From a virus (Duplodnaviria; Heunggongvirae; Uroviricota; Caudoviricetes), in IMG/VR virus record IMGVR_UViG_2690316086_000018: a stretch of DNA of 52,397 nucleotides, one strand, 5' to 3'. Made by a program: the position numbers and the translations under genes. The notes beneath the pieces are model-generated. The model had not been told where the DNA came from. It made no database searches and worked only from the letters and a program-made list of their open reading frames with translations. Position 1 is the stretch's first letter. Every line of letters starts with the position of its first letter. This document shows, piece by piece, positions 3,791 through 44,771 of the stretch.

Positions 3791-3915
3791 TTTAAAAATA
3801 ATGGTTTATGCTTCCTTAATACTATAATATGTTTAATAACTTTAACGTGGAGTGTGCCGGATAAATGGCACCGTTTGGTTTTTTTATTATTTTTACTTTA
3901 TGTTATGAACAGCCA

Positions 3916-3947
3916 GTGATTGTTTTGCACAATCACGAAATGCTGCT
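3916..3947. repeat. partial third copy of palindrome-containing repeat (GTGATTG..CAATCAC..GAARTGCTGCT)
   Basis: gtgattgttttgcacaatcacgaaatgctgct matches the core of the repeats at 4015 and 4516. Confidence 0.5.
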
Positions 3948-4014
3948 TTTATTGTGAGAGCTTATTTAAGATTTCTTTTACTTTATATGCGTCTTCGATG
4001 CGATCTTTTTTGGA

Positions 4015-4150
4015 TAAATCCATCATTAACAGGGGCAAGCCCTGTCCAACAAAGTGATTGGTGTGAACAATCACGAAGTGCTGCTACTAAATATATAGTT
4101 TTCCTATGTGTTTAAGAGCAAATGCTATATGTCAGAGGGGAAATGCTATG
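4015..4150. repeat. ~135-bp direct repeat copy A with two internal hairpins
   Basis: ~90 percent identical to 4516-4650; contains CAGGG-gcaag-CCCTG and GTGATTG-n7-CAATCAC inverted repeats. Confidence 0.65.
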
Positions 4151-4515
4151 TTCGAACATAGGATCTGATGTTAACTTGATAGAGTGAATAGTGAGATTAA
4201 GATCATGTTGTTTTCCATTGATAAAATAGTAATAACTTATAAGTGAACAAGAAAAATAGTTTTATACCAGTATCAGGGGCGTAGCCGTGCGCCAGCACAA
4301 TGTATATATTTTCAAAAAAAATAATTGAATGTATCAGGTAAGAATAAATATCAATAAATATAAGTAATAGTGTTCTATAAGCTGTTAATAAACCGCACAG
4401 GAAGCTTGCTAAGACGTTGGAAGCAGGAAGATGACACATATAACCATCTTCATACTTAAAACGCTTATAATTGATTACAGGCAGTAATTTATATGGAAAA
4501 AATCATTAATTGAAA

Positions 4516-4650
4516 AATCCATCATTAACAGGAACAAGCCCTGTCCAGCAAAGTGATTGTTGGCAACAATCACGAAGTGCTGCTACTAAAGATATAGTTT
4601 TCCTATACATTTAAGAGCAAATGCTATATGTCAGAGATGAAATGCTATTT
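4516..4650. repeat. ~135-bp direct repeat copy B
   Basis: near-identical to 4015-4150. Confidence 0.65.
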
Positions 4651-4748
4651 TTAATTATTTAGTGTTATGAAAAACTAGATCCTGTTTATATCCGCTTGGT
4701 TTCAGCACTCACACAGATGTGTGAAGAAACTATAAAATCACAGATGTT

Positions 4749-4795
4749 ATAAAATATCATAAATATCATAAATATCATAAATATCATAAATATTT
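4749..4795. repeat. tandem 9-bp repeat (ATCATAAAT) x4 plus partial copy
   Basis: atcataaatatcataaatatcataaatatcataaat read directly; ~80 bp upstream of operon start. Confidence 0.75.
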
Positions 4796-4873
4796 TTGAT
4801 ATTACGACTGGTTGCATGGTATTAAATAAAAATAATAACAAAAATCTACTTGGCTACAGCTTTGACAGGAAAC

Positions 4874-5227
4874 ATGGATAAACACTATATCCCTGTTTTA
4901 CAGGATTTAAGAAGAGTGATATACAGCGACAGAATGTTATCAAGGCTTGCAGATAGCGGCAATATTGTTATCCATAGTTCAGTTGGGTATCCGGTTGCTA
5001 AATACAAAAACACGGGGATTAGCATAGGTATAGAACCATTGAATCCAATGATAAGACAAGATCTGACTCTTGGATATATAGTGGTCGTCAGAAACGGGAA
5101 AACATCACAGGAGATTAATGGTTTACTTAACAGGTCATTGCCAAAAGCAATAAGCACTTTTAAGGATCACATCAATGAATATGAAGCAGTAAAAAGTAAA
5201 ATGCGACAACAAACTATGATCTGGTAA
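4874..5227 (+). CDS. hypothetical protein (first gene of unknown operon)
   Basis: ATG at 4874 preceded by AGGAA; track ORF begins at TTG 4850. Confidence 0.4.
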   Translation: MDKHYIPVLQDLRRVIYSDRMLSRLADSGNIVIHSSVGYPVAKYKNTGISIGIEPLNPMIRQDLTLGYIVVVRNGKTSQEINGLLNRSLPKAISTFKDHINEYEAVKSKMRQQTMIW

Positions 5228-5264
5228 AATATTTAGTCTGATAACTTCAGGAGGAGGATGAGCG

Positions 5265-6227
5265 ATGGAAGGTAAGTTAATTTTTTGTTCCGATGCAATA
5301 CTACGGTTTCAGTCCGATTACGATGAAACCGCTGCCGTTCCATTGCTATCCATCCAGAACGTCATAGCCGATACCGATCCGTTTTTTCTTCTCCGTTTCT
5401 TCCACCATACCGTTCTGATTGAAGAAGGAACAACGCTGGCAAGTATCTTTCTGGCAATAGAACCGTGGAAGGCTTTGTTAGCGGCTTATCTGGACAGAGA
5501 TGTTGGTGCTTATATAGATGAGGTAAGAAAACCGTCCGGGCCAACGACATGGGATATTGAATGGATTGGGATTGATCGTCGTAGCATGGTTTACCGTGCT
5601 TATAAACGTCAGGAGATGCAAGATGATGAGGACGTTTCTGACTATTTAAACCGGGAACGCGTTCTGACCGATGAATTTGAGATTGAAAGTGGCTGTGAGG
5701 CTTCTGGCTTCATTAAAGGTGATAAAGAACGCTGGAGCATCAGTGGTGATGTTCACGAGATAAAGAATCTGCCTGTAATCCTCTATAGCAAACAGACATT
5801 GATGACTTCACCGAAAGACGGTTTGCTGAAGAAAAACGTATCGGGTGTGAAGAGTTCCAAGCACAGTTGCTTCGTTTATGGCGATACCTCGTTTTCATTG
5901 AGAGAGGTTATGGAAGCCATCTTCATTAGCGGGCTGTTCTTCTATGCGCCAAGAGACGCCGCCAGTAGTCTTGATGAGCTGAAAGCGAGTGTGGCTGAAC
6001 TGGAAGAAGAACGCGCTGAAAATCCAAATGCGGAGTCGACTGGCAATGAAACAGAGGAAGAACCTACCATCGTCGTAGCCGAAGGTGCATTTGATTCGCT
6101 CGCAGCTCACATGGAGTCTGAAAACGCGGAGTGGCAATACATTAAGAAGTTGTGCCAGCAAGAAGGTGAGCTGCCCATACGTATTGGCAACATCAAAATG
6201 GCTGAGCCACCAGAGTTTCATTTTTAG
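5265..6227 (+). CDS. hypothetical protein, 320 aa
   Basis: strong RBS aggaggagg before ATG; acidic C-terminal region; no recognised motif. Confidence 0.5.
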   Translation: MEGKLIFCSDAILRFQSDYDETAAVPLLSIQNVIADTDPFFLLRFFHHTVLIEEGTTLASIFLAIEPWKALLAAYLDRDVGAYIDEVRKPSGPTTWDIEWIGIDRRSMVYRAYKRQEMQDDEDVSDYLNRERVLTDEFEIESGCEASGFIKGDKERWSISGDVHEIKNLPVILYSKQTLMTSPKDGLLKKNVSGVKSSKHSCFVYGDTSFSLREVMEAIFISGLFFYAPRDAASSLDELKASVAELEEERAENPNAESTGNETEEEPTIVVAEGAFDSLAAHMESENAEWQYIKKLCQQEGELPIRIGNIKMAEPPEFHF

Positions 6228-6278
6228 TTTAAAAGCAATAATCTACCACTTAATGATTACGAAACTATAAGTCGAAGG

Positions 6279-7460
6279 ATGATTCACATGCCGCATAAAA
6301 AAGTAGCGCTACAGCTTATTGAGGAAACGCTTAAAGAACTTGAGTCCCCAAAAGGCTCTTTGTTATCGGCTATACAAAAGCTCCAAAGGACCGCAGATAT
6401 CATTAATGATGAAGATACAAAAATATGGTGTGCTATTCAGTTGGGGGACGATAAATACACAACACCACTTAAATTATTTTTAAAATTCTTAATCGATAAC
6501 AAAAATACAACTACGAAGACTTATGAGGAAAAATTAAGCAAACATATAAAAGTGTTATCTGATACAGGAATTAAGTCTGGAGTTCACTATTCTAACGAAG
6601 AACTTACGTTAAAAAGTAATGAAAGTGGTGGTGGATATAATAATATCGGGTTTATTGAAGAGAAATATGCAGATCTTGTAAGAAAAAAAGAAGGTAATGA
6701 TGGGACATACTATAAAAATAACTTAAACCAACATATTAATTATGTGAGAAAAAAAGCACATGAGTTAGCATCACAAATATTTAATCAACTAAAATTCTCA
6801 GGCACTGTCAGTAACTGTTTTGATATACTAAAAAATGCTGTCGATGATAAACTATTAGATCTAAATCCAGTGATCGCAGAACAGCTAATGTTGGCATTTA
6901 AAGCCATCTCTTCTGATAAAGAAGAAGAATGGTCTCAAGCTTTAACTACATGCCGTCGACTTCTGGAGGGATTGGCTGATGAACTTTACCCTGCATCAAA
7001 GGAGAAATTTAATGGTCGGGCCGTTGGGCAAGGTCAATATGTAAATCGCTTGTGGGCATTTATGGATGGGGCTATTCAATCCGAAAGTAATAAAGACCTT
7101 GCCAAAGCTCATATAGATTTTCTTGGATCATGGTTGGATAAAGTTAACAAGTTAACAAATAAAGGTGTTCATGCCGAGTTAAATCGGATTGAAGCTGTAA
7201 AGTCAGTATTTCATACGTATTTAGTTGTGGCAGATTTGCTTGAGTATATGTCAAATACTAAGATCACTGTCTCTAAGCCTGATATCAATAAAGCTACTTT
7301 AGATGAACTGGAGGCGTTGTTAAATATAAATAGAGCAATCGCTAAAGAAATTGTTAAAGCACGAGTTCGTGAAGGGAAGCTTGATCTGGATATTTTAAAA
7401 AATATAAAAGGTATAGGTGCCAAGACACTTAGTAATATACAAGAAGTGTTTGTTTTGTAA
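6279..7460 (+). CDS. hypothetical protein with C-terminal helix-hairpin-helix (ComEA-like) DNA-binding motif
   Basis: 393-aa ORF ending LDLDILKNIKGIGAKTLSNIQEVF; alternative start ATG 6288. Confidence 0.5.
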   Translation: MIHMPHKKVALQLIEETLKELESPKGSLLSAIQKLQRTADIINDEDTKIWCAIQLGDDKYTTPLKLFLKFLIDNKNTTTKTYEEKLSKHIKVLSDTGIKSGVHYSNEELTLKSNESGGGYNNIGFIEEKYADLVRKKEGNDGTYYKNNLNQHINYVRKKAHELASQIFNQLKFSGTVSNCFDILKNAVDDKLLDLNPVIAEQLMLAFKAISSDKEEEWSQALTTCRRLLEGLADELYPASKEKFNGRAVGQGQYVNRLWAFMDGAIQSESNKDLAKAHIDFLGSWLDKVNKLTNKGVHAELNRIEAVKSVFHTYLVVADLLEYMSNTKITVSKPDINKATLDELEALLNINRAIAKEIVKARVREGKLDLDILKNIKGIGAKTLSNIQEVFVL

Positions 7461-7499
7461 TTTATTTAGCATTTGATTGATATAATATTATGAAATAAA

Positions 7500-7534
7500 G
7501 TCGGGAGTTCATACGTAGCAACTCCCGATTTTAC
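7500..7534. terminator. bidirectional rho-independent terminator-like hairpin
   Basis: cgggagtt / aactcccg 8-bp stem followed by T-run, between convergent genes. Confidence 0.5.
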
Positions 7535-7551
7535 GATGATACGTTGTATTA

Positions 7552-7929
7552 TCAATCCATCAAACCGCGTGAAGTCTTACTTGCAGTATGACGAAAATCA
7601 TAACGTTCCACAACATCACCCTTAAACCAGATATCCAGAGATTTAATGTGCGCCGTGCTGCTATTGGTCAACAGAGCAAGGCCCGGTATATAGTTAGATA
7701 GTTGGTTTTCTCCCGTCATACTTGAGTAGTTCCACATCTCCTGCCCATCATTCGTAGCGCGTGTCTGAGGCTCTCCAAAGGCAGCAAGAATTTCTTGTTG
7801 GGTAGTTTTTCCCTTGACGATTTTAACTTTAACCGTCTGATGATTTTCATCAGTTAGGGATTTATTGCCATGAACGGTACAGCCACCAAGCGGAAGTATG
7901 ATAAAAATAGCAAATAATAAATTTTTCAT
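7552..7929 (-). CDS. putative lipoprotein
   Basis: MKNLLFAIFIILPLGGC signal peptide plus lipobox; track ORF extends to 8001. Confidence 0.5.
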   Translation of the reverse strand: MKNLLFAIFIILPLGGCTVHGNKSLTDENHQTVKVKIVKGKTTQQEILAAFGEPQTRATNDGQEMWNYSSMTGENQLSNYIPGLALLTNSSTAHIKSLDIWFKGDVVERYDFRHTASKTSRGLMD

Positions 7930-7960: not shown

Positions 7961-8449
7961 TCAGAAAACATACTTTTTAAATACCAGCATCCATCGCTCA
8001 CAAAGTTCGTGATTTGAAGTGCTTTTATTTTTCAGGGGAACATTAACTTTCCACATGGGATTTTTAATATCATCGGTTAAAATATTTAGGCCAGACCTTT
8101 TATTCGCTGAAAGTTGTTCTTTCCAGTTAGCAATAGCCGCATTATTCATACCTCGTAATGTTCCATTGCCGTAAAACTTACCACCCTCTGAAAGCGTGTA
8201 ATTTATTTCCCGGATTTCATCAAAAGTATATGTGCTGTCTTTATTTTTATTGAAAATACGGATAGTATGTTTTTGAGTATCAATTACAATACCTGTCTGC
8301 TGGCATTCATACGAAAGAATGTCGCCGTCCAGAACTTCTGTGAAGTTGTTGTAGTGCTTTTTCTTCTGTATATCTGCTGCGGTCATGATAATGACGAAGA
8401 GCACCACTAAAAACACGATACCTGTTGCTTCCACTCTTACTTCCTCCAT
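7961..8449 (-). CDS. membrane-anchored hypothetical protein
   Basis: 162-aa ORF with N-terminal hydrophobic helix GIVFLVVLFVIIMTAA; upstream of lipoprotein on same strand. Confidence 0.45.
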   Translation of the reverse strand: MEEVRVEATGIVFLVVLFVIIMTAADIQKKKHYNNFTEVLDGDILSYECQQTGIVIDTQKHTIRIFNKNKDSTYTFDEIREINYTLSEGGKFYGNGTLRGMNNAAIANWKEQLSANKRSGLNILTDDIKNPMWKVNVPLKNKSTSNHELCERWMLVFKKYVF

Positions 8450-8569
8450 GTAAATGAGTTAAAGAGACTGAACCCGCTCACAGAGCTTTGCTTCGTTTTA
8501 TACGTCCTACAGCACCAAACTCATGGCGTCGGTCTCGGCGTTGCAAGGCTATCAGAACTTGAAATCATG

Positions 8570-8707
8570 ATCGATATAAAAGATCGATAATGAGTTATTG
8601 ATAGATTTTAACGATTAAATAGATGATATCGATCGGCAATTAATTGTTATTATCGATCGAATATCAACTTATGATAGCTACAAGCTATCATGTGGTCGTT
8701 TTTGATC
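8570..8707. promoter_or_regulatory. GATC / ATCGAT-rich divergent intergenic region (possible Dam-sensitive control region)
   Basis: 5 GATC sites in ~140 bp (8570, 8583, 8631, 8656, 8704) plus 9-bp-arm palindrome atgatagct-aca-agctatcat. Confidence 0.4.
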
Positions 8708-8854
8708 GTTTTAAACGATATGACGAGACGCTAAAAGAATTGAATCCTATCAATTGGTTAAGCGGTGGTTTTGCCATGTGATATTAGCCGGATCCCGCAA
8801 CAACTCTAGCCCTGACCGGATTAGGTCAAAAATTTAGGCACTTTGATTATCAGG

Positions 8855-9397
8855 ATGGATAAGCAGATGAAGAAGATTTTACTCGTTGCTGGCGCAGCTC
8901 TGGCACTGGCGGGATGTGGTGAGAAAGGTGATTTTGAGAAAGCGATCAATGCCAAGATTGGGCAGGACAAATACTGCTTCTCGCTGGATAACAATAACAC
9001 CAGCTTCCCCATCCGTCTTGCCAAGCCACGGCTTGATTCGACTGGCACAGGAACGAATTCAGTGATCCTCGATGGATTTGTTGAACAGGGAATGATGGTC
9101 TTTGAACAGGGCTATGACTCGAACGTCTTAGGGATAACAGAGGAAGGCAAAAAAGCCAAAGTCTGGAGCACACAAGATGGTGCCTGTGTTGGTCGTCGTG
9201 CCGTTGACGAAATTAAGGAATGGACGGAACCGGGTGAAGGTGGTCAGAAAGTTGTTCGCGTATCTTATACATGGAAGCTTACTGACGTTCCGAGCTGGAT
9301 TGACAAAAAAGTGTTCGCCAACGTTAAAGGGATGAATGAACCTGCTGATGGCGTAATGAATCTCTTTAAGACCAGTAATGGTTGGAAAGCTAACTAA
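8855..9397 (+). CDS. putative lipoprotein
   Basis: MKKILLVAGAALALAGCG signal peptide plus lipobox; track ORF starts at TTG 8843. Confidence 0.55.
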   Translation: MDKQMKKILLVAGAALALAGCGEKGDFEKAINAKIGQDKYCFSLDNNNTSFPIRLAKPRLDSTGTGTNSVILDGFVEQGMMVFEQGYDSNVLGITEEGKKAKVWSTQDGACVGRRAVDEIKEWTEPGEGGQKVVRVSYTWKLTDVPSWIDKKVFANVKGMNEPADGVMNLFKTSNGWKAN

Positions 9398-10891: not shown

Positions 10892-11656
10892 TTATAGATC
10901 ATCATTGTTCTGGGAAGAATAGAAAATTTTACTTATTAATTCGTTGCTGACCTCTAGGCCTTTCTTATCAAGATTTTTAATGAATGAACTTAATTGGCTT
11001 TTGTTTTTTAGTATTATATAGTTAATGTCATTTATCCCAAAATCAAGATGAATACTATTTATTTTATCATTATATTCATTCTTTTTTTCAGTGCTTTTTA
11101 TTTTACTGAGTAATGCTATTGGTATTATCCCCTCTTGGTGGGTAGGAACAAATCGCCACTCCATTTCATCTGCAAAACAATAGTCAATTTCTTTTTTGCC
11201 TTCTCTCGTTAGTGGTCCTGTATGATTCTTCATATAACGGAGTATATTTATCAAAGACTGATAATCATTATTTTTGGAATATTCATTCGCAATATCTTTA
11301 TCGTTCTTGAATTTTCTAATCTGCTGATCAAGTAAGGTGAATACATCCGAATATCTACTCATGTATAATACAGGGTTTAAATTGTTTTTTGAGGCCCAGT
11401 CGTCATTAAGACCAATTCCATAATGTCCATACTTCTTTGTATGTTCAGATAACAAAGATAGCCTGATATTACAAAAGGAAACCATTGGTATTCCAAAACG
11501 TCGAGCTACACCATCTTTATTATATATGGTCTCTCTGGCATATGAGGGCCGAAAATATCCATCAGTTAAAATTGATTCCAGCTTGGATTTTTTATCCGTA
11601 AAGTGTAAAAATGTTTTTGGATATAGACTTTTAGTCAATTTCATGAGCCTCGTCAA
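10892..11656 (-). CDS. possible AbiGi-like abortive-infection protein
   Basis: 254-aa ORF; N-terminal FLHFT...LESIL, IPMVSFCNI and YGHYGIGL motifs resemble the AbiGi family as I remember it; not verified by search. Confidence 0.4.
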   Translation of the reverse strand: MTRLMKLTKSLYPKTFLHFTDKKSKLESILTDGYFRPSYARETIYNKDGVARRFGIPMVSFCNIRLSLLSEHTKKYGHYGIGLNDDWASKNNLNPVLYMSRYSDVFTLLDQQIRKFKNDKDIANEYSKNNDYQSLINILRYMKNHTGPLTREGKKEIDYCFADEMEWRFVPTHQEGIIPIALLSKIKSTEKKNEYNDKINSIHLDFGINDINYIILKNKSQLSSFIKNLDKKGLEVSNELISKIFYSSQNNDDL

Positions 11657-11772: not shown

Positions 11773-12465
11773 TTATTTAAATCTTGAATTTGGCTGTTTT
11801 GATTTTTGTGATTGTTTACTACTATGTTCAAACAACATTAATGGTGTCACTTCTATATTGCTATCGGTAGAATTCTCTCCCTTACGAGGACGACTTGGGA
11901 AACGAACGGTCTTGTCATTATCTGATACGTTTCCACAGAAGTCTGCTTCTGATGATTTTTGGTCATTGTTAAATTTAGCTCGTTTTTCAAACTCTGAACG
12001 TGGAACATTGACACCCAACACTTCATCAAAGATATAGTTTTCTGCGATACGCTTATCATGATCAGCATCAGTGGTATCGGGCTTCCTTCTGGCCCATACG
12101 AATCTCTCTCTTATATATCCTACCACCAGTAGTGTGAAACGCTTAAACAAACTACTCTGACGCGGCTTAATCTGTTTCCTACTACTCATGGGAGCACGGT
12201 TCATCACTTTGGTGTTTTGAAGAGATGGGGTTTTCAATTTAGTGGATGCATTTGGTTCAGGAACAACCAGAACAGGGGATTTCTTCCCTGAAACATTTAC
12301 TTTACTGACCTTATTAGGATCACGGTAAGATTTTGCTGCTGGTCTTCTGCTTGTAGTTGCTGTTGCCACAATCGGCTGCTGTTCTTCTACTGTCGGGAAG
12401 TCAGGGATAACAATCTCTTCGGGTTCAGCAAGATGTGTAATCGTAAAGCTTCTGACATCAACCAC
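11773..12465 (-). CDS. hypothetical basic low-complexity protein (GTG start) just downstream of reconstructed mobA end
   Basis: 230-aa K/P/S/T-rich ORF; starts at GTG. Confidence 0.3.
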   Translation of the reverse strand: MVDVRSFTITHLAEPEEIVIPDFPTVEEQQPIVATATTSRRPAAKSYRDPNKVSKVNVSGKKSPVLVVPEPNASTKLKTPSLQNTKVMNRAPMSSRKQIKPRQSSLFKRFTLLVVGYIRERFVWARRKPDTTDADHDKRIAENYIFDEVLGVNVPRSEFEKRAKFNNDQKSSEADFCGNVSDNDKTVRFPSRPRKGENSTDSNIEVTPLMLFEHSSKQSQKSKQPNSRFK

Positions 12466-12626: not shown

Positions 12627-13364
12627 TCATTCACTCTCTTTCAAACCAGTTTTAACTGTTTGTGGTTTTGGGTAAGGCTGGACTTTGAATAGCTTTGTGT
12701 TGAGGCGTTTTCTGGCCCTCTTGTTCAGAAACCGGATGTAACGAAACTGTCGGAACTTATGCACACTGGCTCTGTCGATATTAGCCCTCAGATGTTCACC
12801 TCGTTGTCCGCCTCGTTTAATGGCACTCCTGCAAATCTCGTGATACCACTCGCCATCAAGTTCATAGAATGTTGATTCATGGCTGCCTACATAATCAAAA
12901 TTGCTTGCCTGATACACGACACCAAGACAGCCACAACGCTCATCTGCAAACGACTGAACCCACTGTACCTGCGGATAAAGCTGCCTGATTAGCTTGAGCG
13001 CGTAACTGATTGCCCTTGATTCGGAGTTTCTCGGCATACAGTCATGCATCCATAGCCGGTTAAGCTCCATATATTCTCGGTTCTGCGTACCCGTTACGAC
13101 GCGTGCACCACTGTTTGGGTTAAGGGCGTAACCCCATTGCATTACGCCAACAAGTTCCCGTTCTGAAAATATACCCAGATGAAGGTAGGAATTATTTACG
13201 AAACGGTGGCTGTAATGTTTATTGACGATAACCAGTCTGGCCAGCCAGCAACTTATTGTCTCAACCCGCAACTCACGGGAGCCATAACCAACGATATTGT
13301 CGTTATAGCGAATAAGTTCAGGCGTGCTGATGATACGGGATGTGACTTGCTTTCTGTTCCCCAC
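12627..13364 (-). CDS. mom: Mom-like DNA modification protein
   Basis: 245-aa ORF overlapping the 3' end of a Com-like gene, last gene before prophage end, GATC cluster upstream: the Mu com-mom arrangement. Confidence 0.6.
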
Positions 13365-13518
13365 GACAGGATTTCCTTGTGTATGTGGGGTGCTCTGTGG
13401 CGCTCGGAGATGTGATTTGATTGAGGGTTTTACAGCGCGGACATTTTACTTCCAGATAACTGAAACTGGCCCGTGCCAGTAGCTTATTGCAGTGTCGGCA
13501 CCGTATGTTTCGATACAT
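13318..13518 (-). CDS. com: Com-like zinc-finger translational activator of mom
   Basis: [15 protein letters not shown]...EVKCPRCK...EHPT closely matches remembered Mu Com; start taken at internal ATG. Confidence 0.7.
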
Positions 13519-13565
13519 GGCCGCATAACCTCCTGCTTTGTTGTTGATGCCTTTCTCATGCAATC

Positions 13566-13703
13566 GATCGACAAAAACGATCGATTCGATTTGTTTAATT
13601 GATACAACAAATAGATTTAAAAGTCATCAACAATGATTCAGGGCGGTGATTATTTACTTAAAGAAACGAAGAGTTAGGTGGTGAAAACGATCATAAAATG
13701 ATC
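13566..13703. promoter_or_regulatory. GATC cluster upstream of com-mom (probable Dam-dependent regulatory region)
   Basis: GATC at 13566, 13579, 13689, 13700 embedded in ATCGATCG-type motifs. Confidence 0.5.
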
Positions 13704-13924
13704 ATTTTATTGACTTTTTATACAGTGAAGGTAGGATCGCGCGTATATGTAGTATGTTTCAAATCAACAGGATACTACATAAAAGGGAAACCCAGCATAG
13801 CTGGAACTATGCTGGGTCAATCTGTAAAAACTTGCATCAATGCTTTACTTCGAGCTCGTGGCGTATCCTATGATATTCCCCGGTCTCCTGTAAAGCAGAG
13901 ATGCATAAAAAGGAGATCTTTATC

Positions 13925-14095
13925 ATGGATAAAGAGCCTGTTTGCCCTGCCTGTAAGACTCCCTTACAGCTCATCTATCGCCGTTCTCGATCTCAAAATG
14001 GCAAGACATACAAACCAAAAAATGCTTCCTGTTTCAGGATGCTGATATGTCCTGCCTGTTCTCCCCGGAGGGAAAATACACAAAACGTGCATTAA
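13925..14095 (+). CDS. small zinc-ribbon protein (CPAC...CPAC), possibly Ogr/Delta-like
   Basis: 56-aa ORF with strong aaaaggaga RBS; two CxxC pairs; divergent from com. Confidence 0.3.
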   Translation: MDKEPVCPACKTPLQLIYRRSRSQNGKTYKPKNASCFRMLICPACSPRRENTQNVH

Positions 14096-14133
14096 CAAAT
14101 TCACCCGGCAGGGAAACCTGCCGGTCGGTATTG

Positions 14134-14379
14134 TTACATCATAGTACCGTCAGTTCCGGGCTGAACCGGCTCTGGTTGCTCTACGGGTTGAGGCTCATTT
14201 TCCGTGCTGTTTTCAGCCGGAGAACGACCAACCATTCGGGCCAGCACTTCATCAACATATGCGTCGATTTGTGCCTCAAAATCCTTGCGAACCTGCGCCT
14301 TCAGCACGCGGTTCACTTCTTCAGAATAAAGTGCCTGTTTGACAAGCTCTTCAGTAACCGTGCCTTTAATCTCTGGCAT
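14134..14379 (-). CDS. hypothetical protein
   Basis: 81-aa ORF with aaggag RBS; acidic/Pro-rich C-terminus. Confidence 0.45.
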   Translation of the reverse strand: MPEIKGTVTEELVKQALYSEEVNRVLKAQVRKDFEAQIDAYVDEVLARMVGRSPAENSTENEPQPVEQPEPVQPGTDGTMM

Positions 14380-14414
14380 GAATATTCTCCTTTCCTTTTC
14401 TGGTTCACAAAAAA

Positions 14415-14594
14415 TTAAATCTGACCGGAGTCTTTCGGCTGCGGCATTACAGCACCGCTTTTTATCTTTTCCTCGGCAGCTGCATCAATTTTATTTCGAA
14501 AATAATTGCGAATAATTTTATAACCACCGCTGACAAGCAACAGACAACAAACCACCGTGCAGAAATACAGCAGGCAGACGTTTATATATGTCAT
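14415..14594 (-). CDS. small membrane protein, 59 aa (not in ORF track)
   Basis: hand translation MTYINVCLLYFCTVVCCLLLVSGGYKIIRNYF...; GAGG RBS; one N-terminal TM helix. Confidence 0.3.
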   Translation of the reverse strand: MTYINVCLLYFCTVVCCLLLVSGGYKIIRNYFRNKIDAAAEEKIKSGAVMPQPKDSGQI

Positions 14595-14651
14595 ATAAGC
14601 CTCACTCTTATTAACTGATGTTACAGCCGGATAAATTCCCGGCCGTCACGA

Positions 14652-16709
14652 TTATGCCGCAGGGGTATTAACCTCAAGGACAACGCTCTCAAAAGACACG
14701 CCATAAGTTGCCCCTTTGGTGACATCTGTCAGTGTCAGCGTATCTTTGGCAGGGGAAAGTGCATCTTTCACCATCTGGAATGCCTGGCCCGGAGTGCCAT
14801 CCAGCACAGGCGTTACCTGGGCACTTCCCGCCGTAAACTTCAGGACAAGTGTATGCCACTGGTTATTGTAGGCTCCAAATGATCCCAGTTTCGTATTCCC
14901 CCCTGTTTTATGGTGCATCAGATTTAACTGGCCGCCTGTTGTCTGGAGATAATACGCCATCAGGAACGGTGTGCCTGTACCACTCATGGTTACACCTTCC
15001 GGGACCGTATCGGTGTGGAGGTAAATACCCAGAGCAAACTGGCCTTCTTTTACTTCACCTGACAGACGGAATTTACAGGTCAACTGACCACCATGCTTCA
15101 GAAGTTCACCGGCTGCATCAGTTCCATGGGTAAGCGCCCAGGTTTTTCCGCTTTGTTTGGATACGGTCAACGCTTTACCTTCGTCCGTCAGCTGGATTGT
15201 ACCATCTGTAATTTTCCAGCCCTGAGCCGGGGCTTCTCCTGCTGATGCTTTAAGTGAAAGCAGCGTACGGAGTGACGGGGATGTCGGATGGGGGGACTCA
15301 CTGCCTCCTGGCTGACTACCTGTCGGCGCTTCCGGTTTCCCACCCGGCGCGGGCTGAGGCAGGGCTTCACCATCAGGGGCCACACCGGCAATAAATGCAG
15401 AGGTCAGACCTGCATATTTAAGAATTGCTGATGCAAAACGATCTGAGACCAGAAAACGGCGCGCCCAGGAGCTAAAATGGGTTGCCCTGGATGCTGTTGT
15501 CCAGTTGCCATCTCCCCGTGATTCCGCACCATAATACCCGGCAGAAGCGATATCCGGGTCGTGCTCCGGCAGGTTGGTCGCGGTTTTATTACCGAACTCA
15601 TCGTGCATCAGTGGAACAAAGTGAATGTTCTCGGAAGCCCGGTTTTTATATCCGCTATAAATGGTTTCATATGCCGCCGGGTTCTTCTCTTTCCAGTCAT
15701 AGGTTGTGTCACCACATAACCACGGCACACTGTCTGATGAACCACCAATACACTGACCGGAGAAAGCACCAAGATCCGCACGGAATTTTTTCACCATCGC
15801 AGTAAACTGGGCACCATGCTGGGCCGGGGTCGCTTTAAGGTCTCCTTCCCCCTGAATCCATACGACAGATAACAGCACATTCTTTGGATTCGCCTCAAGT
15901 GCCGCTTTAGTTCGACTGACAAGATCCTGATACAGTGGGGTATCCACTCCCCAGCGTAGTGACGCCTCGGCTGCACCACTTGCCGGATCGAATGAGCCAA
16001 CTGCGCCGGTTGTAAAAGCAGAGCCGCCACGGGCACAGGGAACCAGTAAAATCCCGGCATCAGCAGGAATCACCGGTAATACTTTTTTCGCAATATGAAG
16101 TCCCTGCCCCACACAACCATACTGCCCTTTTTTCAGGTCTGCTTTTGGATGGTTCAGCAGACTCATATTCTGAACATCATGAAGGCAGTGATCTGCTGGA
16201 ATGATTTCATTGTATTTGCAGGGAATACCTCCGGGGGTTTGTGTATTCCTGCGTGCCAGCTGCATAATACGTGGATCAGGACGATCATAAGAATCCGGAA
16301 GGGGCAACCCTTCACCATAAGATGAAGCATTGGACTGGCCGGCTATAACAATCACGTAATACCAGGAAGGGGAGCTGGAAGCCGTTTCATTTCCTGCCGG
16401 ACGGGTATGTGTTTCTGCATTATCCCAGTCTGACGGTTCAGTAGTACCGGCAACATCAGCACTTAACGGAATGACAGCACCAATACCCGCTCCGGTAATT
16501 TCCACGTTCGGATCACCGGATACTGGCCTTACCCACAGGCAATCCTGTGTATTAAAACTGATGAGACAGTCAGCAAATGTCATTCCTCCTTTCGTTTCAG
16601 CAGGAGGAAAGGGAGCCTCAAGAAATGCCGCTGTACCACCGGAAACTTTAACGGTAAAGTTTCCGGGCATTGATGATAGTTGAACCCATTTGGACGTCAT
16701 AATATTCAT
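14652..16709 (-). CDS. SGNH/SASA-type carbohydrate esterase-domain protein with C-terminal beta-sandwich-like domain (prophage cargo gene)
   Basis: 685-aa ORF with VIVIAGQSNASSYGEG (GQSN serine motif of sialate-O-acetylesterase-like SGNH hydrolases); lies between gin and com-mom. Confidence 0.6.
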   Translation of the reverse strand: MNIMTSKWVQLSSMPGNFTVKVSGGTAAFLEAPFPPAETKGGMTFADCLISFNTQDCLWVRPVSGDPNVEITGAGIGAVIPLSADVAGTTEPSDWDNAETHTRPAGNETASSSPSWYYVIVIAGQSNASSYGEGLPLPDSYDRPDPRIMQLARRNTQTPGGIPCKYNEIIPADHCLHDVQNMSLLNHPKADLKKGQYGCVGQGLHIAKKVLPVIPADAGILLVPCARGGSAFTTGAVGSFDPASGAAEASLRWGVDTPLYQDLVSRTKAALEANPKNVLLSVVWIQGEGDLKATPAQHGAQFTAMVKKFRADLGAFSGQCIGGSSDSVPWLCGDTTYDWKEKNPAAYETIYSGYKNRASENIHFVPLMHDEFGNKTATNLPEHDPDIASAGYYGAESRGDGNWTTASRATHFSSWARRFLVSDRFASAILKYAGLTSAFIAGVAPDGEALPQPAPGGKPEAPTGSQPGGSESPHPTSPSLRTLLSLKASAGEAPAQGWKITDGTIQLTDEGKALTVSKQSGKTWALTHGTDAAGELLKHGGQLTCKFRLSGEVKEGQFALGIYLHTDTVPEGVTMSGTGTPFLMAYYLQTTGGQLNLMHHKTGGNTKLGSFGAYNNQWHTLVLKFTAGSAQVTPVLDGTPGQAFQMVKDALSPAKDTLTLTDVTKGATYGVSFESVVLEVNTPAA

Positions 16710-16799: not shown

Positions 16800-17360
16800 T
16801 TATTTTTCCGAAACGCTCGCAGGATAATAACGATAAAGGGTTGAAAGGCCGATATCAAAAATAAGTGCCACCTGTCTTCGACTGACACCCCCGGCCAGTA
16901 AACGCCCGACCTGCTCGTATTGTTCCTGCGTGAGACGACGGGGTCTGCCGCCGGTTCGTCCCCTTTCACGGGCAGCTGCAAGACCAGCCCGTGTCCGTTC
17001 GACAATTAATTCACGCTCCATTTCTGCCAGCGCACCCATTATGTGAAAAAAGAAGCGCCCCATGGGGGTTGACGTATCAATGTTGTCAGTAAGACTACGA
17101 AAATTTATCCCCTGTTGCTGTAATTCATCTGTCAGCGCAACAAGGTGGCGCATACTGCGCCCCAGCCTGTCCAGTTTCCAGACCATCAGTGTGTCACCGG
17201 GTTTTAGTTTCTTCAGTGCCCGCTTCAGTCCCGGCCGCTGTGTCGTTTTACCACTCATTTTGTCTTCAAAAATCTGCTCACATCCTGCACATTCCAGCGC
17301 ATTTCTTTGTAAACCGGTGTTCTGGTCATTTGTTGATACGCGTATATAGCCAATCAGCAT
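16800..17360 (-). CDS. gin: Gin-type serine DNA invertase
   Basis: MLIGYIRVSTNDQNTGLQRNAL...DRLGRSM...; near-identical in pattern to Mu Gin/Hin/Cin. Confidence 0.9.
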   Translation of the reverse strand: MLIGYIRVSTNDQNTGLQRNALECAGCEQIFEDKMSGKTTQRPGLKRALKKLKPGDTLMVWKLDRLGRSMRHLVALTDELQQQGINFRSLTDNIDTSTPMGRFFFHIMGALAEMERELIVERTRAGLAAARERGRTGGRPRRLTQEQYEQVGRLLAGGVSRRQVALIFDIGLSTLYRYYPASVSEK

Positions 17361-40669: not shown

Positions 40670-41095
40670 TCAGAAAAGTGGCGGTTGCGTTCTTGCCAGA
40701 TGCAGACGGCGCTGTTCACGTATGACGGTATAAATCTGGGTTTCTGACATCCGGTAATGGCGGCGAAGGGATTCAATTTTCTCGCCCCGGTCCCAGCGCG
40801 AAAATATCTCATTGTTTCGCAGCTCGGCAAAGAGAGATTCCCCGACCGGCAGGTAATAACCCCGTCCGCCCATATAGGCTGCCTGAGCCGCAGCCACCTT
40901 GCGTGCCAGTTTACCGGCCAGTACCGGCTCAATCCCCTGACGCTGAAGTTCTGCGCCGGTGACTTCAACCAGTTCTGACAGGGTCCGCGGCCAGTTCTTT
41001 TTGAGAACATCATCAGGGATGTCATCAAGGCGGTCGATAAGGGCGTGCAGTTGCTCACTGTCACCACCAAACATGCTCATCTGAGTTTCTGCCAT
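40670..41095 (-). CDS. mor: Mor/C-family transcriptional activator
   Basis: 141 aa with C-terminal HTH (MSETQIYTVIREQRR); between gemA-like and lysis genes. Confidence 0.65.
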   Translation of the reverse strand: MAETQMSMFGGDSEQLHALIDRLDDIPDDVLKKNWPRTLSELVEVTGAELQRQGIEPVLAGKLARKVAAAQAAYMGGRGYYLPVGESLFAELRNNEIFSRWDRGEKIESLRRHYRMSETQIYTVIREQRRLHLARTQPPLF

Positions 41096-42154: not shown

Positions 42155-42482
42155 TTGCTTTATCCTCCATGCTGGACAGAATCATATGTATTAATGTCGG
42201 GCGTGGAGATATACGCATTTCATTAAGCGTCTGAAGGGCAGCAACAGCTGCCTGTTTATCGGTGCCTTTGGCAATTTCAGCAAGAGAATGCACAATCCAT
42301 AACGGGCTTAACGCTACGGCTGAATGCAGAATCATGTCATCCATAATAATTTCTGGCATATCCCGTTTGTCACATTCTTTATCCATAAAAGAAACGATTT
42401 TTTCTGCATCTTCCGGTTTCATGCCTCCGGCGATGAGAATTTTACGATATTCATAAGACGATCTTAATTCAATACTCATCAT
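42147..42482 (-). CDS. hypothetical early-region protein
   Basis: 111 aa, translationally coupled run. Confidence 0.4.
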   Translation of the reverse strand: MMSIELRSSYEYRKILIAGGMKPEDAEKIVSFMDKECDKRDMPEIIMDDMILHSAVALSPLWIVHSLAEIAKGTDKQAAVAALQTLNEMRISPRPTLIHMILSSMEDKANE

Positions 42483-42494
42483 TCACCTGCCTGT

Positions 42495-42887
42495 TTAATC
42501 AGTTTCCAGTGCTTTGCTACGGGCAACAGCCTCACACTCAAAAAATACCGACTCCGGCACACGCTCCTTTAATTCACGAACAAGAAAATCATTAACGAGT
42601 TCATGACGTCTTATATTTCTTTCCTTTTCCTCCTGGCGCAATACAGCAAGGCGGTATTCAACAGTCCGGCGTTGTTTCTGAAAGACAGCCAGTGCTTTTC
42701 TGGCAGAGTTACGCCATGTATCATCGCCACAGGGTTCGTATTCAAGCTGAAATTTAATCTCTTCAATGGTTTCTTTTATTTTTGCCAGCAAGCTAAGACA
42801 GTCGCTGATTGTCTTCAGTTTTTCATTATCAATATAACTTCTCACGCACTCACCTCCCGTCATTCCGGTAAAGCTGAAATATGGCAC
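42495..42887 (-). CDS. hypothetical early-region protein
   Basis: 130 aa. Confidence 0.4.
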   Translation of the reverse strand: MPYFSFTGMTGGECVRSYIDNEKLKTISDCLSLLAKIKETIEEIKFQLEYEPCGDDTWRNSARKALAVFQKQRRTVEYRLAVLRQEEKERNIRRHELVNDFLVRELKERVPESVFFECEAVARSKALETD

Positions 42888-43171
42888 CAGTGCGTCACCT
42901 GTCCGTCCTCATCTTCAAGGCAGGCTCCGGTTTCTTCATCAATAAAAAAGCCTTCATACCCCATATGGCCGATGCGCAGTTCCTGTTGGTCACCATACTG
43001 AACAATCAGCACGACAGCCTCCATATCAGGCGGAAATGCGTCATCCAGTGAATGCCAGGGATAACCGCGCAAATCCCCGAAATAAACACCGGTCAGCGTT
43101 CCGCCACAAACCGACATTCCGGCGGCACATACCAGAGGCTCGTCTGATTCAACAAATAATGTCGTTATCAT
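42860..43171 (-). CDS. hypothetical early-region protein
   Basis: 103 aa. Confidence 0.4.
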   Translation of the reverse strand: MITTLFVESDEPLVCAAGMSVCGGTLTGVYFGDLRGYPWHSLDDAFPPDMEAVVLIVQYGDQQELRIGHMGYEGFFIDEETGACLEDEDGQVTHWCHISALPE

Positions 43172-43719
43172 GGCATTAACTCCCGTAATACAACATCTTC
43201 GGCAGTCCGGCGATGGTGATAAATAAAATTCACCGTACTCTCGGATAATTCAAATTTCTCGCCTATTTCCCGGAAGGTAAGACGTCGTGGTGATTCAGCA
43301 TCCCGTAATTCACGAATAAGATGAACATCATCATCAGGTATACGGGTGAAGGGCAGCAACTCTCCGTATTTTTTCATGCTTACGCCAATATATCGCGCCC
43401 GTTTGTGGACAGAATCCCGGTCTCGCCCCAGATATTCTCCTATTTGCTTACCGGTCATCGTTCTGGCATTTTTTCGGATAAATTTATCTTCATCATGTTT
43501 AAATCTTGGACGTTTGCATTTGAGCAACTCCGGGTAAGTACCGCGTAATAAAACAATCCGGTTATGTACACCCCAGAAACTTCTTTTTACCCTGACAGCA
43601 ATATCCTTAACCGGGGTGGATGGATAAAGCGCAATCAGCAGTGCATCTTCTTCAGGTGTCCACGCACGGACATGAGCGGGTGCACGGCCTTTTCGCCCCA
43701 TGGGTTGTAAAATCATCAT
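43168..43719 (-). CDS. hypothetical early-region protein (possible DNA-binding)
   Basis: 183 aa, basic. Confidence 0.4.
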   Translation of the reverse strand: MMILQPMGRKGRAPAHVRAWTPEEDALLIALYPSTPVKDIAVRVKRSFWGVHNRIVLLRGTYPELLKCKRPRFKHDEDKFIRKNARTMTGKQIGEYLGRDRDSVHKRARYIGVSMKKYGELLPFTRIPDDDVHLIRELRDAESPRRLTFREIGEKFELSESTVNFIYHHRRTAEDVVLRELMP

Positions 43720-43722
43720 ACA

Positions 43723-44238
43723 TCACCCCCTGACTCGCTTTTCAGCAGCATAAAACTCATCAGACAGAATTTCGGTCATTTTCTGTTTTGCGGGTTTTAC
43801 GCCGCACTGAAGGTAAATCACATCGTCAACGCAGAACCACTCCACAGGGCCAAACAGGATTGCCGAGAAATCAATACCCAGCCAGAACAACAGGGCATCG
43901 GTTCTGGCATACGTGACGGGCGAATATTCACGCCACAGACTGTTAAGTTCGTCAGAGGCAGCGCACAGGGCTTTGGGAATACACGATGTGCGCGGCGTGC
44001 AGCTCCAGCCATTCGACGCAGTCGGTTTTCGCCATAAGTCGCGATGAAAAGGATATTTGTTATCCGTAAAACGCAGTCCTTTAAAATAAAAACCATTGAT
44101 ACCGGATACAAATACCGACCGACAATCAACATTCAGCACGGCCTCAAGACGTTTTGCCTCATCCTTAACTTTCTTGTAGTCCTGCTGGTATTTTTGCCAC
44201 GCAGCCAGCGCGGAAGGGTTTGATGTTTTAAAGAACAT
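43723..44238 (-). CDS. hypothetical early-region protein
   Basis: 171 aa. Confidence 0.4.
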   Translation of the reverse strand: MFFKTSNPSALAAWQKYQQDYKKVKDEAKRLEAVLNVDCRSVFVSGINGFYFKGLRFTDNKYPFHRDLWRKPTASNGWSCTPRTSCIPKALCAASDELNSLWREYSPVTYARTDALLFWLGIDFSAILFGPVEWFCVDDVIYLQCGVKPAKQKMTEILSDEFYAAEKRVRG

Positions 44239-44771
44239 TACGCCACCTCCGCAGATATCCCGGCAGGCGCAGCCGTCCGGTCAACAATCAGGTAACGCAG
44301 AACATGTTCGGTGATATTCCAGCCGCTTAAACCGCAGATAATGACACCCAGGCGAATGTCGATATACGCCATCACAAACTGGGGCACGCCTTCTTTCATG
44401 GCCTGCTCATCAACTTCAGCCACCACATAAACGGTTTCGCAGGTCAGTACGCCCTGAGCAAATTCCCACGCCATCGACGGAATATCATGCCCCTCAATCC
44501 ACGGCAGGGACTTTCTGAAGCTGCACCACTGAACATCATCAGCCGCACCTTCCTGGCTGCATTTGCGACGAACCGGCTGCACCGGGCGGGGACGCGGAAT
44601 ATCATAAAAACCGTTACATTCCGTCAGCACCCCGGCATCGACCGCATCACGCAGAAAATAAACCATCGAGGATGGCGGCATATTCATTTTTTCAGCCAGA
44701 ATGCCGCAGGTCAGACGCCCGTAAATACTCAGCCAGTTTTTAACCCCTTCAAGCACTTTTGCATCAATCAT
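44238..44771 (-). CDS. hypothetical early-region protein
   Basis: 177 aa. Confidence 0.4.
   Translation of the reverse strand: MIDAKVLEGVKNWLSIYGRLTCGILAEKMNMPPSSMVYFLRDAVDAGVLTECNGFYDIPRPRPVQPVRRKCSQEGAADDVQWCSFRKSLPWIEGHDIPSMAWEFAQGVLTCETVYVVAEVDEQAMKEGVPQFVMAYIDIRLGVIICGLSGWNITEHVLRYLIVDRTAAPAGISAEVA

Follow-up and report, generated by a model that had tools for sequence, protein, structure and literature searches.

The region described here is the com-mom DNA-modification operon at the right end of a Mu-like (Sp18-type) prophage that is common in E. coli, contained in a 52,397-nucleotide stretch of DNA (the window). We consider it probable that the operon is functional, that a translation-inhibition structure (TIS) and Com control its translation, and that it is transcribed from a weak promoter of its own, overlapped or abutted by a Dam/OxyR element. 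The module is ordinary except that its GATC element lies much nearer the genes than in Mu, and as the Sp18-type prophage has already been noted in the literature, the com-mom module as such was already known. The features are collected in Table 1.

Table 1. Position, strand and description of the com-mom features and of the late activator gene in the window.
Feature	Position	Strand	Description
mom	12627..13364	-	CDS with GTG start, 245 aa, stop codon included; Pfam Mom PF25680
TIS	13359..13390	-	6-bp stem in predicted minimum-energy and centroid folds
com	13318..13518	-	CDS with ATG start, 66 aa; zinc-ribbon translational activator; Pfam Zn_ribbon_Com (PF10122)
Com hairpin	13390..13403	-	Short hairpin GCGC-CACAGA-GCAC with Com-binding motif CCACAGAG (13400-13393); fits SELEX motif
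com Shine-Dalgarno	13529..13534	-	AGGAGG, read from sequence; 10 nt before ATG
Candidate core promoter D	13544..13571	-	-35 TCGATC (13571-13566), 16-nt spacer, -10 CATCAA (13549-13544)
Proximal palindrome	13562..13586	.	Perfect, AATCGATCG-N7-CGATCGATT, 9-bp inverted repeat; GATC 13566 and 13579, spacing 13 nt
OxyR-type composite site	13567..13612	.	Two half-sites 31 nt apart; consensus match
Candidate core promoter C	13599..13627	-	-35 ATGACT (13627-13622), 17 nt, -10 TATCAA (13604-13599)
Mu C-box-like element	13645..13653	-	ATAATCACC, fits ATAAYCMC; weak candidate
Distal palindrome	13684..13708	.	AAAACGATCAT-N3-ATGATCATTTT; GATC 13689 and 13700, 11-nt spacing; not homologous to Mu sites
Divergent sigma-70-like promoter	13710..13737	+	TTGACT-16-TAGGAT; promoter scan
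Intrinsic-terminator-like hairpin	13789..13818	-	13 pairs, 6 G-C; followed by T tract, tail TCCCTTTTAT
Late activator gene	40670..41095	-	Sole Mor/C-family late activator of the prophage, 141 aa; directly upstream of lys

The Mom protein matches Pfam PF25680 over profile positions 1-202 of 202 (E = 8.5e-77; 257.8 bits against a cut-off of 27.1), PHROG 1384 (E = 1.2e-83) and the solved Mom structure PDB 8bv8 (chain 8bv8_A, residues 4-232; E = 5.9e-124), and is identical to Mu Mom at 183 of 231 residues (79%). Mom, which has a GNAT fold, uses Gly-tRNAGly as the donor of a glycine that it attaches to N6 of adenine in double-stranded DNA, and its product rearranges to N6-carbamoylmethyl-adenine, by which many restriction enzymes are blocked (PMC13219725). 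For the activity of Mu Mom, R111, S124 and R151 are essential and W48, H58, Y59, D149, Y159 and W181 important (PMC13219725). All nine residues are kept in the window protein (W40, H50, Y51, R103, S116, D141, R143, Y151 and W173) and the HTH-like insertion required for activity (Mu residues ~175-209) aligns without gaps; the same enzyme activity would be expected of the window protein. On identical DNA, RefSeq carries the label 'Mom family adenine methylcarbamoylation protein', and a search of NCBIfam returned no model matching Mom or Com. The GTG is the first start codon in the mom reading frame, whereas the Mu frame also offers an ATG 10 codons upstream.

Com is only 47% identical to Mu Com, and yet the Cys4 zinc ribbon is kept, with Cys7, 10, 26 and 29 aligning with Mu Cys6, 9, 26 and 29. 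It matches Zn_ribbon_Com (E = 3.3e-12; 46.1 bits against a cut-off of 22.9) and the PHROG entry 'gpCom control of modification', and its ORF is also called by PGAP. The gene is undisrupted and lies directly upstream of mom, which it overlaps by 47 nt (com stop at 13318, mom start at 13364) compared to 50 nt in Mu; its Shine-Dalgarno sequence is invariant in 14 variants. The initial annotation had recognized a Com-like zinc finger overlapping a Mom-like ORF, and both identifications are borne out, as alignment to the Mu proteins finds both homologous and the reading frames are unbroken. Compared with the sister variant JE86, mom carries 31 synonymous and 8 non-synonymous codon differences, and compared with the variant M18 36 and 7, respectively. 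With synonymous differences exceeding non-synonymous ones four- to five-fold, com-mom is, by this codon comparison, under purifying selection. The ORF lengths of com and mom are preserved in 25 of 29 viral contigs.

The surrounding prophage (~12499-51613) appears complete. Queries with Mu proteins from Ner through Mom found homologues along its length, only the c repressor being without a match, and a transposition-type target duplication flanks the element, which is inserted at an otherwise empty mobQ site. A match at 52386 considered for the left end was rejected, as it is the start of the host mobQ gene. DNA identical to the window's com-mom occurs in RefSeq E. coli genomes, where it is annotated as Com and Mom, and related DNA is found in 812 of 5,426 genomes. 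With Mu the module shares the right-end position in a transposable phage, the com-mom gene order and the overlap; unlike in Mu, ~3 kb of additional genes lie between gin and com. Mu has two Mor/C-family genes and the window phage one, the product of which matches Pfam Mor (E = 2.8e-32) and the PHROG entry 'late transcriptional activator' and is 39% identical to Mu C.

The RNA elements that control mom translation are present as well. In the predicted TIS, CCCCAC (13390-13385) pairs with GUGGGG (13364-13359), placing the mom GUG start within the stem and the mom Shine-Dalgarno sequence AAGGAA (13378-13373) within the loop. The structure is identical in M18, and Mu has an equivalent CCCAC...GUGGG stem over its mom GUG. 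The Com motif defined by SELEX, 5'-CCNNNGAG-3', occupies a 6-nt loop adjoining the TIS (PMC6483171) and this loop, too, is found in both phages. Where the window has its Com hairpin Mu has AUGC-CUGCGA-GCAU; one pair is compensatory (A-U to G-C) and one is broken, so that three of the four stem pairs are kept, the fold alone being not significant (z -1.0). A search of Rfam returned nothing relevant. We propose that the hairpin burying the GUG start would lock mom translation and that Com, translated first from the same mRNA, would bind the CCACAGAG loop of the adjacent hairpin, upon which the TIS would open.

Transcriptional control was predicted in the initial annotation to reproduce the Mu arrangement, based on four GATC sites in a common motif 50-190 bp upstream. 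The positions are correct, GATC occurring at 13566, 13579, 13689 and 13700, that is 51, 64, 174 and 185 nt upstream of the com ATG. The motif is not, since only the two proximal sites lie in ATCGATCG-type motifs, whereas the distal two lie in ACGATCAT and ATGATCAT. A fifth GATC, at 13735, was absent from that annotation. By count alone the cluster is within chance expectation: the window has slightly fewer GATC sites than expected (177 compared to 208), and 37% of random placements of 177 sites yield some cluster of five in 180 nt, for which reason the count was rejected as evidence.

The proximal pair is non-random, because it is invariant in 14 unique sister sequences despite differing flanks and because, of 55 unique com-upstream sequences taken from other phages and genera, 36 show the same 13-nt spacing. 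Sequence comparison identifies it as homologous to GATC II and III of Mu (Mu ATCAATTAAAtcGATCGgtaatacaGATCGATT, window ATCAATTAAAcaaatcgaatcGATCGtttttgtcGATCGATT), the pair lying in both phages 13 nt apart inside ATCAATTAAA...GATCG-N8-GATCGATT. We recognized this homology first by eye and then substantiated it by comparing genera; a MAFFT alignment that spanned the entire upstream region of both phages misaligned the regulatory DNA and was discarded. The palindrome formed by the pair is identical to the agn43 OxyR core GATCGTTTATATCGATCGAT at 17 of 20 positions. As for the distal sites, M18 has lost the one at 13689, and the JE86 and L059 types, which retain com-mom under purifying selection, have neither; the two sites are probably not part of mom control. 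They adjoin the divergent promoter, whose -10 is overlapped by the GATC at 13735; this promoter faces a small zinc-ribbon ORF (13925-14095) and is conserved in M18 as TTGACT-16-TACGAT. PGAP places a frameshifted hypothetical gene at 13633-14095.

The proximal pair is part of a composite site of the OxyR type. Its half-sites ATTTGTTGTATCAAT (13612-13598) and ATCGTTTTTGTCGAT (13581-13567) each match 7 of 10 positions of ATAGnTnnnAnCTAT, a degenerate consensus, and Mu likewise has two half-sites (7/10 and 7/10) 31 nt apart, at positions that we derived from the Mu sequence and its annotation. The corresponding values are 8 and 8 at 32 nt for agn43, and 10 and 8 at 32 nt for P22 gtr. Scored against the tetramer consensus, the window and Mu sites each reach 13/20 and that of agn43 14/20, a score of 13/20 being attained by only 44 of ~104,700 window positions. 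Of 14 com-mom loci, 10 have an upstream half-site that scores 7/10 or better at a distance of 31-32 nt, compared to 1.3% expected per locus. Since the proximal pair is homologous to Mu II/III and the composite site scores like that of Mu, Dam/OxyR control of com-mom is a reasonable inference. The proximal half-site of the element (13612-13567) would carry both GATCs, so that OxyR could bind when these are unmethylated or hemimethylated, shutting the promoter, whereas full Dam methylation would exclude it. As the sites would be methylated and OxyR excluded in a dam+ lysogen, OxyR alone could not silence a toxic gene.

Where the promoter lies is constrained by its surroundings. The terminator-like hairpin at 13818-13789 closes the tail-fibre transcription unit upstream of com and therefore com-mom should have a promoter of its own between ~13780 and 13535. 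In Mu, the annotated 67-bp late promoter directly follows GATC III and comprises a C-binding box TTAT-N6-ATAA/ATAACC, a poor -35, ACCACA, a T6 run and a TAAGAT -10. In the window the proximal GATC is followed after only 31 nt by the com Shine-Dalgarno sequence, so Mu's promoter cannot fit, and the block is indeed missing between the GATC pair and com. Relative to the com ATG, the pair is at -64 and -51, compared to -91 and -78 in Mu. The Mu arrangement is thus not reproduced. In addition, three GATCs are present in Mu, at ~-87, -69 and -56 from the start site, with spacings of 18 and 13 nt, whereas in the window the position of GATC I reads TATC, 22 nt away, leaving only the 13-nt pair, and the distal sites are spaced 11 nt. 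As the Mu C-box/T-run promoter is absent after the pair, the OxyR-type element would have to overlap or abut the core promoter.

Two weak candidates for this promoter, both predicted to overlap the OxyR-type site, were found downstream of the terminator, and the proposed position of the element holds whichever of them would be used. Candidate D has the proximal GATC as its -35 and a predicted start near 13537, a layout resembling that of the mapped P22 gtr promoter TCGATC-17-TACACT, which starts 33 nt after GATC4. Its spacer is a constant 16 nt in 14 variants, 7-8 columns varying while both flanks are conserved; the -10 is TATCAT or TATCAA in sister variants, compared to a very poor CATCAA in the window. 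Candidate C (predicted start near 13592) is retained as ATGACA-17-TATCAA in the JE86-type variant, where the upstream sequence is otherwise unrelated, but it is weak by PSSM, falling outside the top five matches, and its -10 lacks the invariant T. Sigma-70 scans upstream of com with a promoter tool and a PSSM gave nothing convincing, the best PSSM score, 6.1, being at an unrelated position; in the same scan the agn43 control scores 11.2 and the known Pmom of Mu no better than the window. In independent short-spacing lineages TATACT, TATAGT or TGnTAGATT follows the proximal GATC by 7-9 nt. A search of the phage for the late-promoter motif ATYCCGCAAARCCYGCC found it only at lys and I, with no copy upstream of com. 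A weak promoter needs an activator, and the absence of this motif there counts against the proposed reading, which does not account for late timing.

A promoter upstream of the palindrome, with the GATC/OxyR element in the transcribed leader as an agn43-like roadblock, is in our view rather unlikely. It could use the C-box-like ATAATCACC (13653-13645) with ATGACT as the -10 and a start near 13615, or a Mu-Pmom-like block CACCAC...TTTAAGTA (13683-13655) with a start near 13648. The first form gains from the similarity of ATAATCACCGCCCTG to the Mu Plys C-box ATAATCCCGCACCTG (11/15), from the fit to ATAAYCMC, a consensus that we derived from four Mu late promoters (sequences in PMC4461284), and from the resemblance of ATGACT to Mu TAGACT. 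Yet ATGACT begins 26 nt after the start of the box compared to 28 in Mu, the 3' part of the box (adjoining CCGCCC) varies, and JE86-type variants have no such box although their com-mom is intact and under selection. The second form recalls, with CACCAC...TTTCTTTAAGTA, ACCACA...TTTTTTAAGAT of Mu and TTTGTTTAAGTA of L009, but M18 has not conserved this block and the JE86 and L059 types lack it. The 146-nt leader is predicted to fold at -38.2 kcal/mol (z -2.95), pairing CCUG...UUGUUGAUGA with UCAUCAACAA...CAGG beside the Shine-Dalgarno sequence, with a register-shifted equivalent in M18; the leader RNA could thereby mask part of the com Shine-Dalgarno sequence. The three GATCs of agn43, at +1 to +33, also suit a transcribed element. 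What speaks against either form is that the region upstream of com lacks the late-promoter motif of lys and I. Variants that lack all DNA upstream of ~13613 or ~13650 retain com-mom under selection.

The other readings are less probable still. A palindrome that is not an OxyR site and binds a phage protein or SeqA, or serves only as a leader RNA hairpin, would be in keeping with its perfect 9-bp inverted repeat, usable by any dimeric protein or RNA stem, and with half-site scores of only 7/10. We regard it as very unlikely, since the sequences most similar to it are OxyR/Dam cores defined by experiment, those of Mu mom, agn43 and gtr, which share the 13-nt GATC spacing and a partner half-site at 31-32 nt; as for an RNA stem, the arms in other lineages are not self-complementary (Mu GATCGgtaatacaGATCG) and yet the GATCs and their spacing persist. 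A single Mu-type regulatory region made up of all four GATCs, followed by a C-dependent promoter with the Mu layout, could be argued from the four to five GATCs within 220 nt upstream of com and from the encoded Mor/C-family activator. Sequence comparison already contradicts it, making it highly improbable: the space for Mu's promoter and the 18+13 triplet of Mu-type loci are both missing, and the distal pair has the wrong spacing for that scheme, is dispensable in sisters and adjoins the divergent promoter. A silent relic, its genes intact but never expressed and its promoter decayed, would account for the degraded -10 of candidate D and for the failure to detect a strong promoter; it is scarcely credible given the excess of synonymous differences, the conserved ORF lengths, the presence of the module in hundreds of genomes and a Pmom in Mu itself that the scan ranks no higher. 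We retain a com-mom promoter overlapped or abutted by the Dam/OxyR element as the preferred reading.

For this reading agn43 and gtr offer close parallels, although the genes that they regulate are unrelated to com-mom. Both resemble the window in having an ATCG-N7-CGAT half-site whose two GATCs are spaced 13 nt and a partner half-site located 31-32 nt upstream of it. In gtr the element sits on the core promoter, TCGATC serving as the -35, but it comprises three half-sites and two 13-nt pairs, whereas the window has one. In agn43 the OxyR site spans ~-12 to +35 from the start (half-sites at 406-420 and 438-452 of L066, start at 418) and the sigma-70 promoter is strong, whereas upstream of the window com nothing scores well. 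To our knowledge, phase variation has been shown for no mom operon. FluMu (Hin1523), Pnm1 (Nma1821) and phage B3 also carry, at the right end, a com-like zinc-ribbon gene before a DNA-modification gene (PMC3299994), which encodes an m6A methyltransferase where the window has a true Mom.

Comparison of the 55 com-upstream sequences shows the putative Dam/OxyR element to be a conserved companion of com-mom. Its distance from the genes falls into two classes, long (Mu-like) and short, and by its position the element of the short class must sit on the presumed promoter. This result is the only new element here, a modest one, and offers a simple and testable example of how control of a toxic gene can be rewired. 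It would be a long shot to propose that in the Sp18-type prophage and several independent short-spacing lineages the Dam/OxyR operator replaced the C-activator box on the core promoter, creating a gtr/agn43-like geometry. If true, the methylation state of two GATCs would be the main determinant of mom expression, which could switch epigenetically, uncoupled from the late activator, and mom might be ON in a subpopulation of lysogens, modifying host DNA. A large proportion of pathogenic E. coli, O157:H7 among them, carry this prophage, which supplies an apparently working anti-restriction hypermodification system, and such a module bears on the passage of phages across strain barriers.

The com-mom module is real and intact, and it is known already: by megablast, many E. 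coli genomes in RefSeq share its DNA unchanged, with products that PGAP labels 'Mom family adenine methylcarbamoylation protein' and 'Com family' protein, and a match was present in 812 of 5,426 complete genomes. The initial annotation's Com-like ORF overlapping a Mom-like ORF was borne out, the overlap being 47 nt. The mom product matches Pfam PF25680 over the entire profile (E 8.5e-77), the PHROG 'Mom-like DNA modification protein' and the solved Mom chain 8bv8_A (E 5.9e-124), and is 79% identical to Mu Mom (tblastn); Com matches Pfam Zn_ribbon_Com and PHROG 'gpCom control of modification', and its four cysteines align with the zinc ligands of Mu Com. According to a 2026 study, Mu Mom uses Gly-tRNAGly as the donor of a glycine, which it attaches to the adenine N6 in dsDNA, and a rearrangement then yields N6-carbamoylmethyl-dA; R111, S124 and R151 are essential, and W48, H58, Y59, D149, Y159, W181 and an HTH-like insertion are important (PMC13219725). 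All nine of these activity residues are identical in the window Mom once a 10-residue numbering offset is corrected, and the insertion aligns without gaps. Because synonymous differences outnumber non-synonymous ones in mom (31 to 8 and 36 to 7 codons against two diverged sister prophages) and the lengths of both ORFs are preserved in 25 of 29 viral contigs, com and mom are judged to be under purifying selection.

The module lies in a prophage extending from ~12499 to 51613. Along its minus strand, homologues of most Mu proteins used as queries follow one another as in Mu, from Ner (near 50.6 kb) through to Mom (12.6 kb); among those queried, no homologue of the Mu c repressor was detected. 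These homologues are mostly 35-60% identical to their Mu counterparts, Mom being the most conserved. The prophage splits a mobQ relaxase gene of a genomic island, next to an AbiGi-family gene at 10892-11656, and is flanked by TGTA(T) and TGTAG, a 5-bp target duplication with one mismatch; E. coli O103 ML775 carries the intact mobQ gene and the empty site aatgtggTGTAGacc. Published work predicts that Sp18, the Mu-like prophage of O157, is intact, and notes that it has homologues of Mom and of the Mom regulators (PMC2669165, PMC3299994). Given these reports and DNA of E. coli O157:H7 genomes 98.3% identical to the window, the prophage would be of the Sp18 type.

Features of the prophage and of the com-mom region (window positions)
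Feature	Position	Strand	Description
MobQ-family relaxase gene halves	11773-12465 and 51609-52397	minus	separated by prophage insertion
mom ORF	13364-12627	minus	GTG start, 245 aa, full-length Mom
com ORF	ATG 13518, stop 13318	minus	AGGAGG ahead of ATG; upstream gene of the pair
Candidate D (putative core promoter)	within common block 13627-13519		-35 TCGATC (proximal GATC), 16 nt, -10 [C/T]ATCA[A/T]
Candidate C (putative core promoter)	within common block 13627-13519		ATGAC[T/A], 17 nt, TATCAA
Divergent sigma-70-like promoter		plus	TTGACT-16-TAGGAT; GATC 13735 overlaps -10; aims at small zinc-ribbon ORF
Terminator-like hairpin	13818-13789	minus	divides com-mom from upstream genes
lys/I promoter motif ATYCCGCAAARCCYGCC	40668-40652 and 32741-32725	minus	common to lys and I upstream regions

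The target of Mu Com is a CCNNNGAG motif in a 6-nt hairpin loop; this short hairpin stands beside a translation-inhibition structure, whose stem contains the mom GUG (PMC6483171). The window keeps this layout: CCACAGAG at 13400-13393 lies within GCGC-CACAGA-GCAC, and 3' of this hairpin CCCCAC (13390-13385) pairs with GUGGGG (13364-13359), and the loop between them contains the mom SD. The 6-bp stem, one pair longer than the CCCAC/GUGGG core of Mu, is predicted in both the minimum-energy and centroid folds; against shuffled sequences, folds around the mom start are not significant alone (z about -1). The argument that mom translation would be controlled here as in Mu rests on positional homology.

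Upstream of com, GATC occurs at 13566, 13579, 13689, 13700 and 13735, which as a number is unremarkable. The proximal pair (13566 and 13579) lies inside the perfect palindrome AATCGATCG-N7-CGATCGATT and is plainly homologous to GATC II and III of Mu, with which it shares the flanking ATCAATTAAA, the contexts GATCG and GATCGATT, and a spacing of 13 nt. The core is identical at 17 of 20 positions to the OxyR/Dam core of agn43 (E. coli K-12) and likewise similar to the GATC pairs of P22 gtr. Measured against the OxyR consensus ATAGnTnnnAnCTAT, half-sites at 13612 and 13581 score 7/10 each and stand 31 nt apart, as compared to 7/10 and 7/10 at 31 nt in Mu, 8 and 8 at 32 nt in agn43, and 10 and 8 at 32 nt in gtr. 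In 10 of 14 com-mom loci of different genera, a partner half-site scoring 7/10 or more stands 31-32 nt away (chance expectation 1.3%), and the 13-nt pair was found in 36 of 55 unique com-upstream sequences collected from GTDB genomes and IMG/VR.

The proposal that the region reproduces the Mu arrangement proved incorrect in detail. Mu has a first GATC 18 nt further upstream, whereas the window has no GATC I; and in the Mu record the annotated late promoter takes up the 67 bp that start directly after GATC III and reach the com SD, with TAAGAT, a T6 run and a C-binding box that overlaps the -35 among its elements. The window leaves just 31 nt between the proximal GATC and the com SD, the Mu promoter block is wholly absent, and the distance from that GATC to the com ATG is 51 nt instead of 78. 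Surveyed distances, which are approximate as com starts at other loci were assigned automatically, group into a long class of -62 to -83, in which an 18/19+13 GATC triplet is almost always present, and a short class of -51 to -57. Independent short-class lineages carry a near-consensus -10 (TATACT, TATAGT, TGnTAGATT) 7-9 nt past the proximal GATC, and in them the pair overlaps the -35 and spacer. In other short-spacing lineages (L094, L095, L096) the com leader has a small hairpin at its predicted 5' end, with compensatory changes (GCCAC...GTGGC vs GCCG...CGGC).

As the terminator-like hairpin separates the upstream genes, the com-mom promoter must lie between ~13780 and 13535. A promoter further upstream, placing the OxyR-type element within a long leader, is in our view unlikely: a Mu-Pmom-like block (13683-13655) does occur there, and it is missing, along with the distal GATCs, from two of the several sister architectures, while the C-box-like ATAATCACC (13653-13645) is missing from one and variable in its 3' part. 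The sole block common to all is 13627-13519, which holds both candidates, and the stretch 13642-13598 is invariant. The spacer of candidate D is constant in length in 14 of 14 unique variants, with 7-8 variable columns between conserved flanks; D mirrors the mapped P22 gtr promoter TCGATC-17-TACACT and predicts a leader of ~20 nt, like the 22-nt leader of Mu. In the window both are weak (a hand calculation with the sigma-70 matrix gives about 2 for C and a negative score for D), and in a matrix scan D of the sister variant M18 scores 6.0 and the agn43 promoter 11.2. As the true mom promoter of Mu fails the same scan, such weakness is expected and not disqualifying. Under either candidate the OxyR-type element would overlap the core promoter, a geometry that we consider rather probable. 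The GATC palindrome is flanked by the arms of an imperfect 23-nt inverted repeat (13532-13554 vs 13620-13642), whose pairing in RNA would close a structure beside the com SD (-38.2 kcal/mol, z -2.95), and M18 keeps the pairing with the register shifted by 3 nt.

The weak com promoter needs an activator, and the prophage encodes a single Mor/C-family gene. The lys/I motif, followed 13 nt on by TACGCT or TATGCT, resembles the Mu Plys C-box ATAATCCCGCACCTGCC, and the Mor/C homologue probably has its site there; a search upstream of com did not find the motif.

The distal GATCs at 13689 and 13700, 11 nt apart in a second palindrome directly upstream of the -35 of the divergent promoter, are more likely part of this divergent unit than elements controlling mom. 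The slot between the DUF826 gene and com (13633-14418, plus strand) varies in gene content among sister prophages. In the window the slot is occupied by a frameshifted hypothetical gene, part of which is a 56-aa CxxC...CxxC ORF (13925-14095) that has a good SD and gave no match in a family search; M18 has a 175-aa zinc-ribbon/TM protein and the variant JE86 an 86-aa protein. A minus-strand sigma-70-like site (TTTACA-18-TAGGAT, 13865-13894) ~50 nt upstream of the terminator hairpin could, together with it, yield a short ~70-nt transcript antisense to the plus-strand unit. About 3 kb not in Mu (14134-16709), between a Gin-like invertase (16800-17360) and com, encodes a 685-aa protein with SASA esterase and DUF6645 domains, a DUF1378 protein and a DUF826 protein.

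Elsewhere in the window, GATC sites cluster a second time at 8560-8800, in a divergent intergenic region of the genomic island with a DUF4755 gene on one side (7961-8434, minus) and a SEN1982-family lipoprotein gene on the other (8867-9397, plus): 8569 and 8582 are 13 nt apart, and further sites are at 8631, 8655, 8704 and 8791. This cluster coincides with the best OxyR-consensus matches of the entire window (16/20 at 8652, 15/20 at 8597) and resembles a Dam/OxyR phase-variation switch, on which a full-text literature search found no paper. The prophage early region is GATC-free for 4,679 bp (42460-47139), where base composition predicts 17.8 sites; the Mu early region is likewise GATC-free for 4,044 bp (3883-7927), and Mu overall has half the expected count.

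Dam-linked control, as initially proposed, is a reasonable reading for the proximal pair. The Dam/OxyR element, to which OxyR would bind, is a conserved companion of com-mom that is present in this prophage, and it is reasonable that the prophage may modify its own DNA against restriction.
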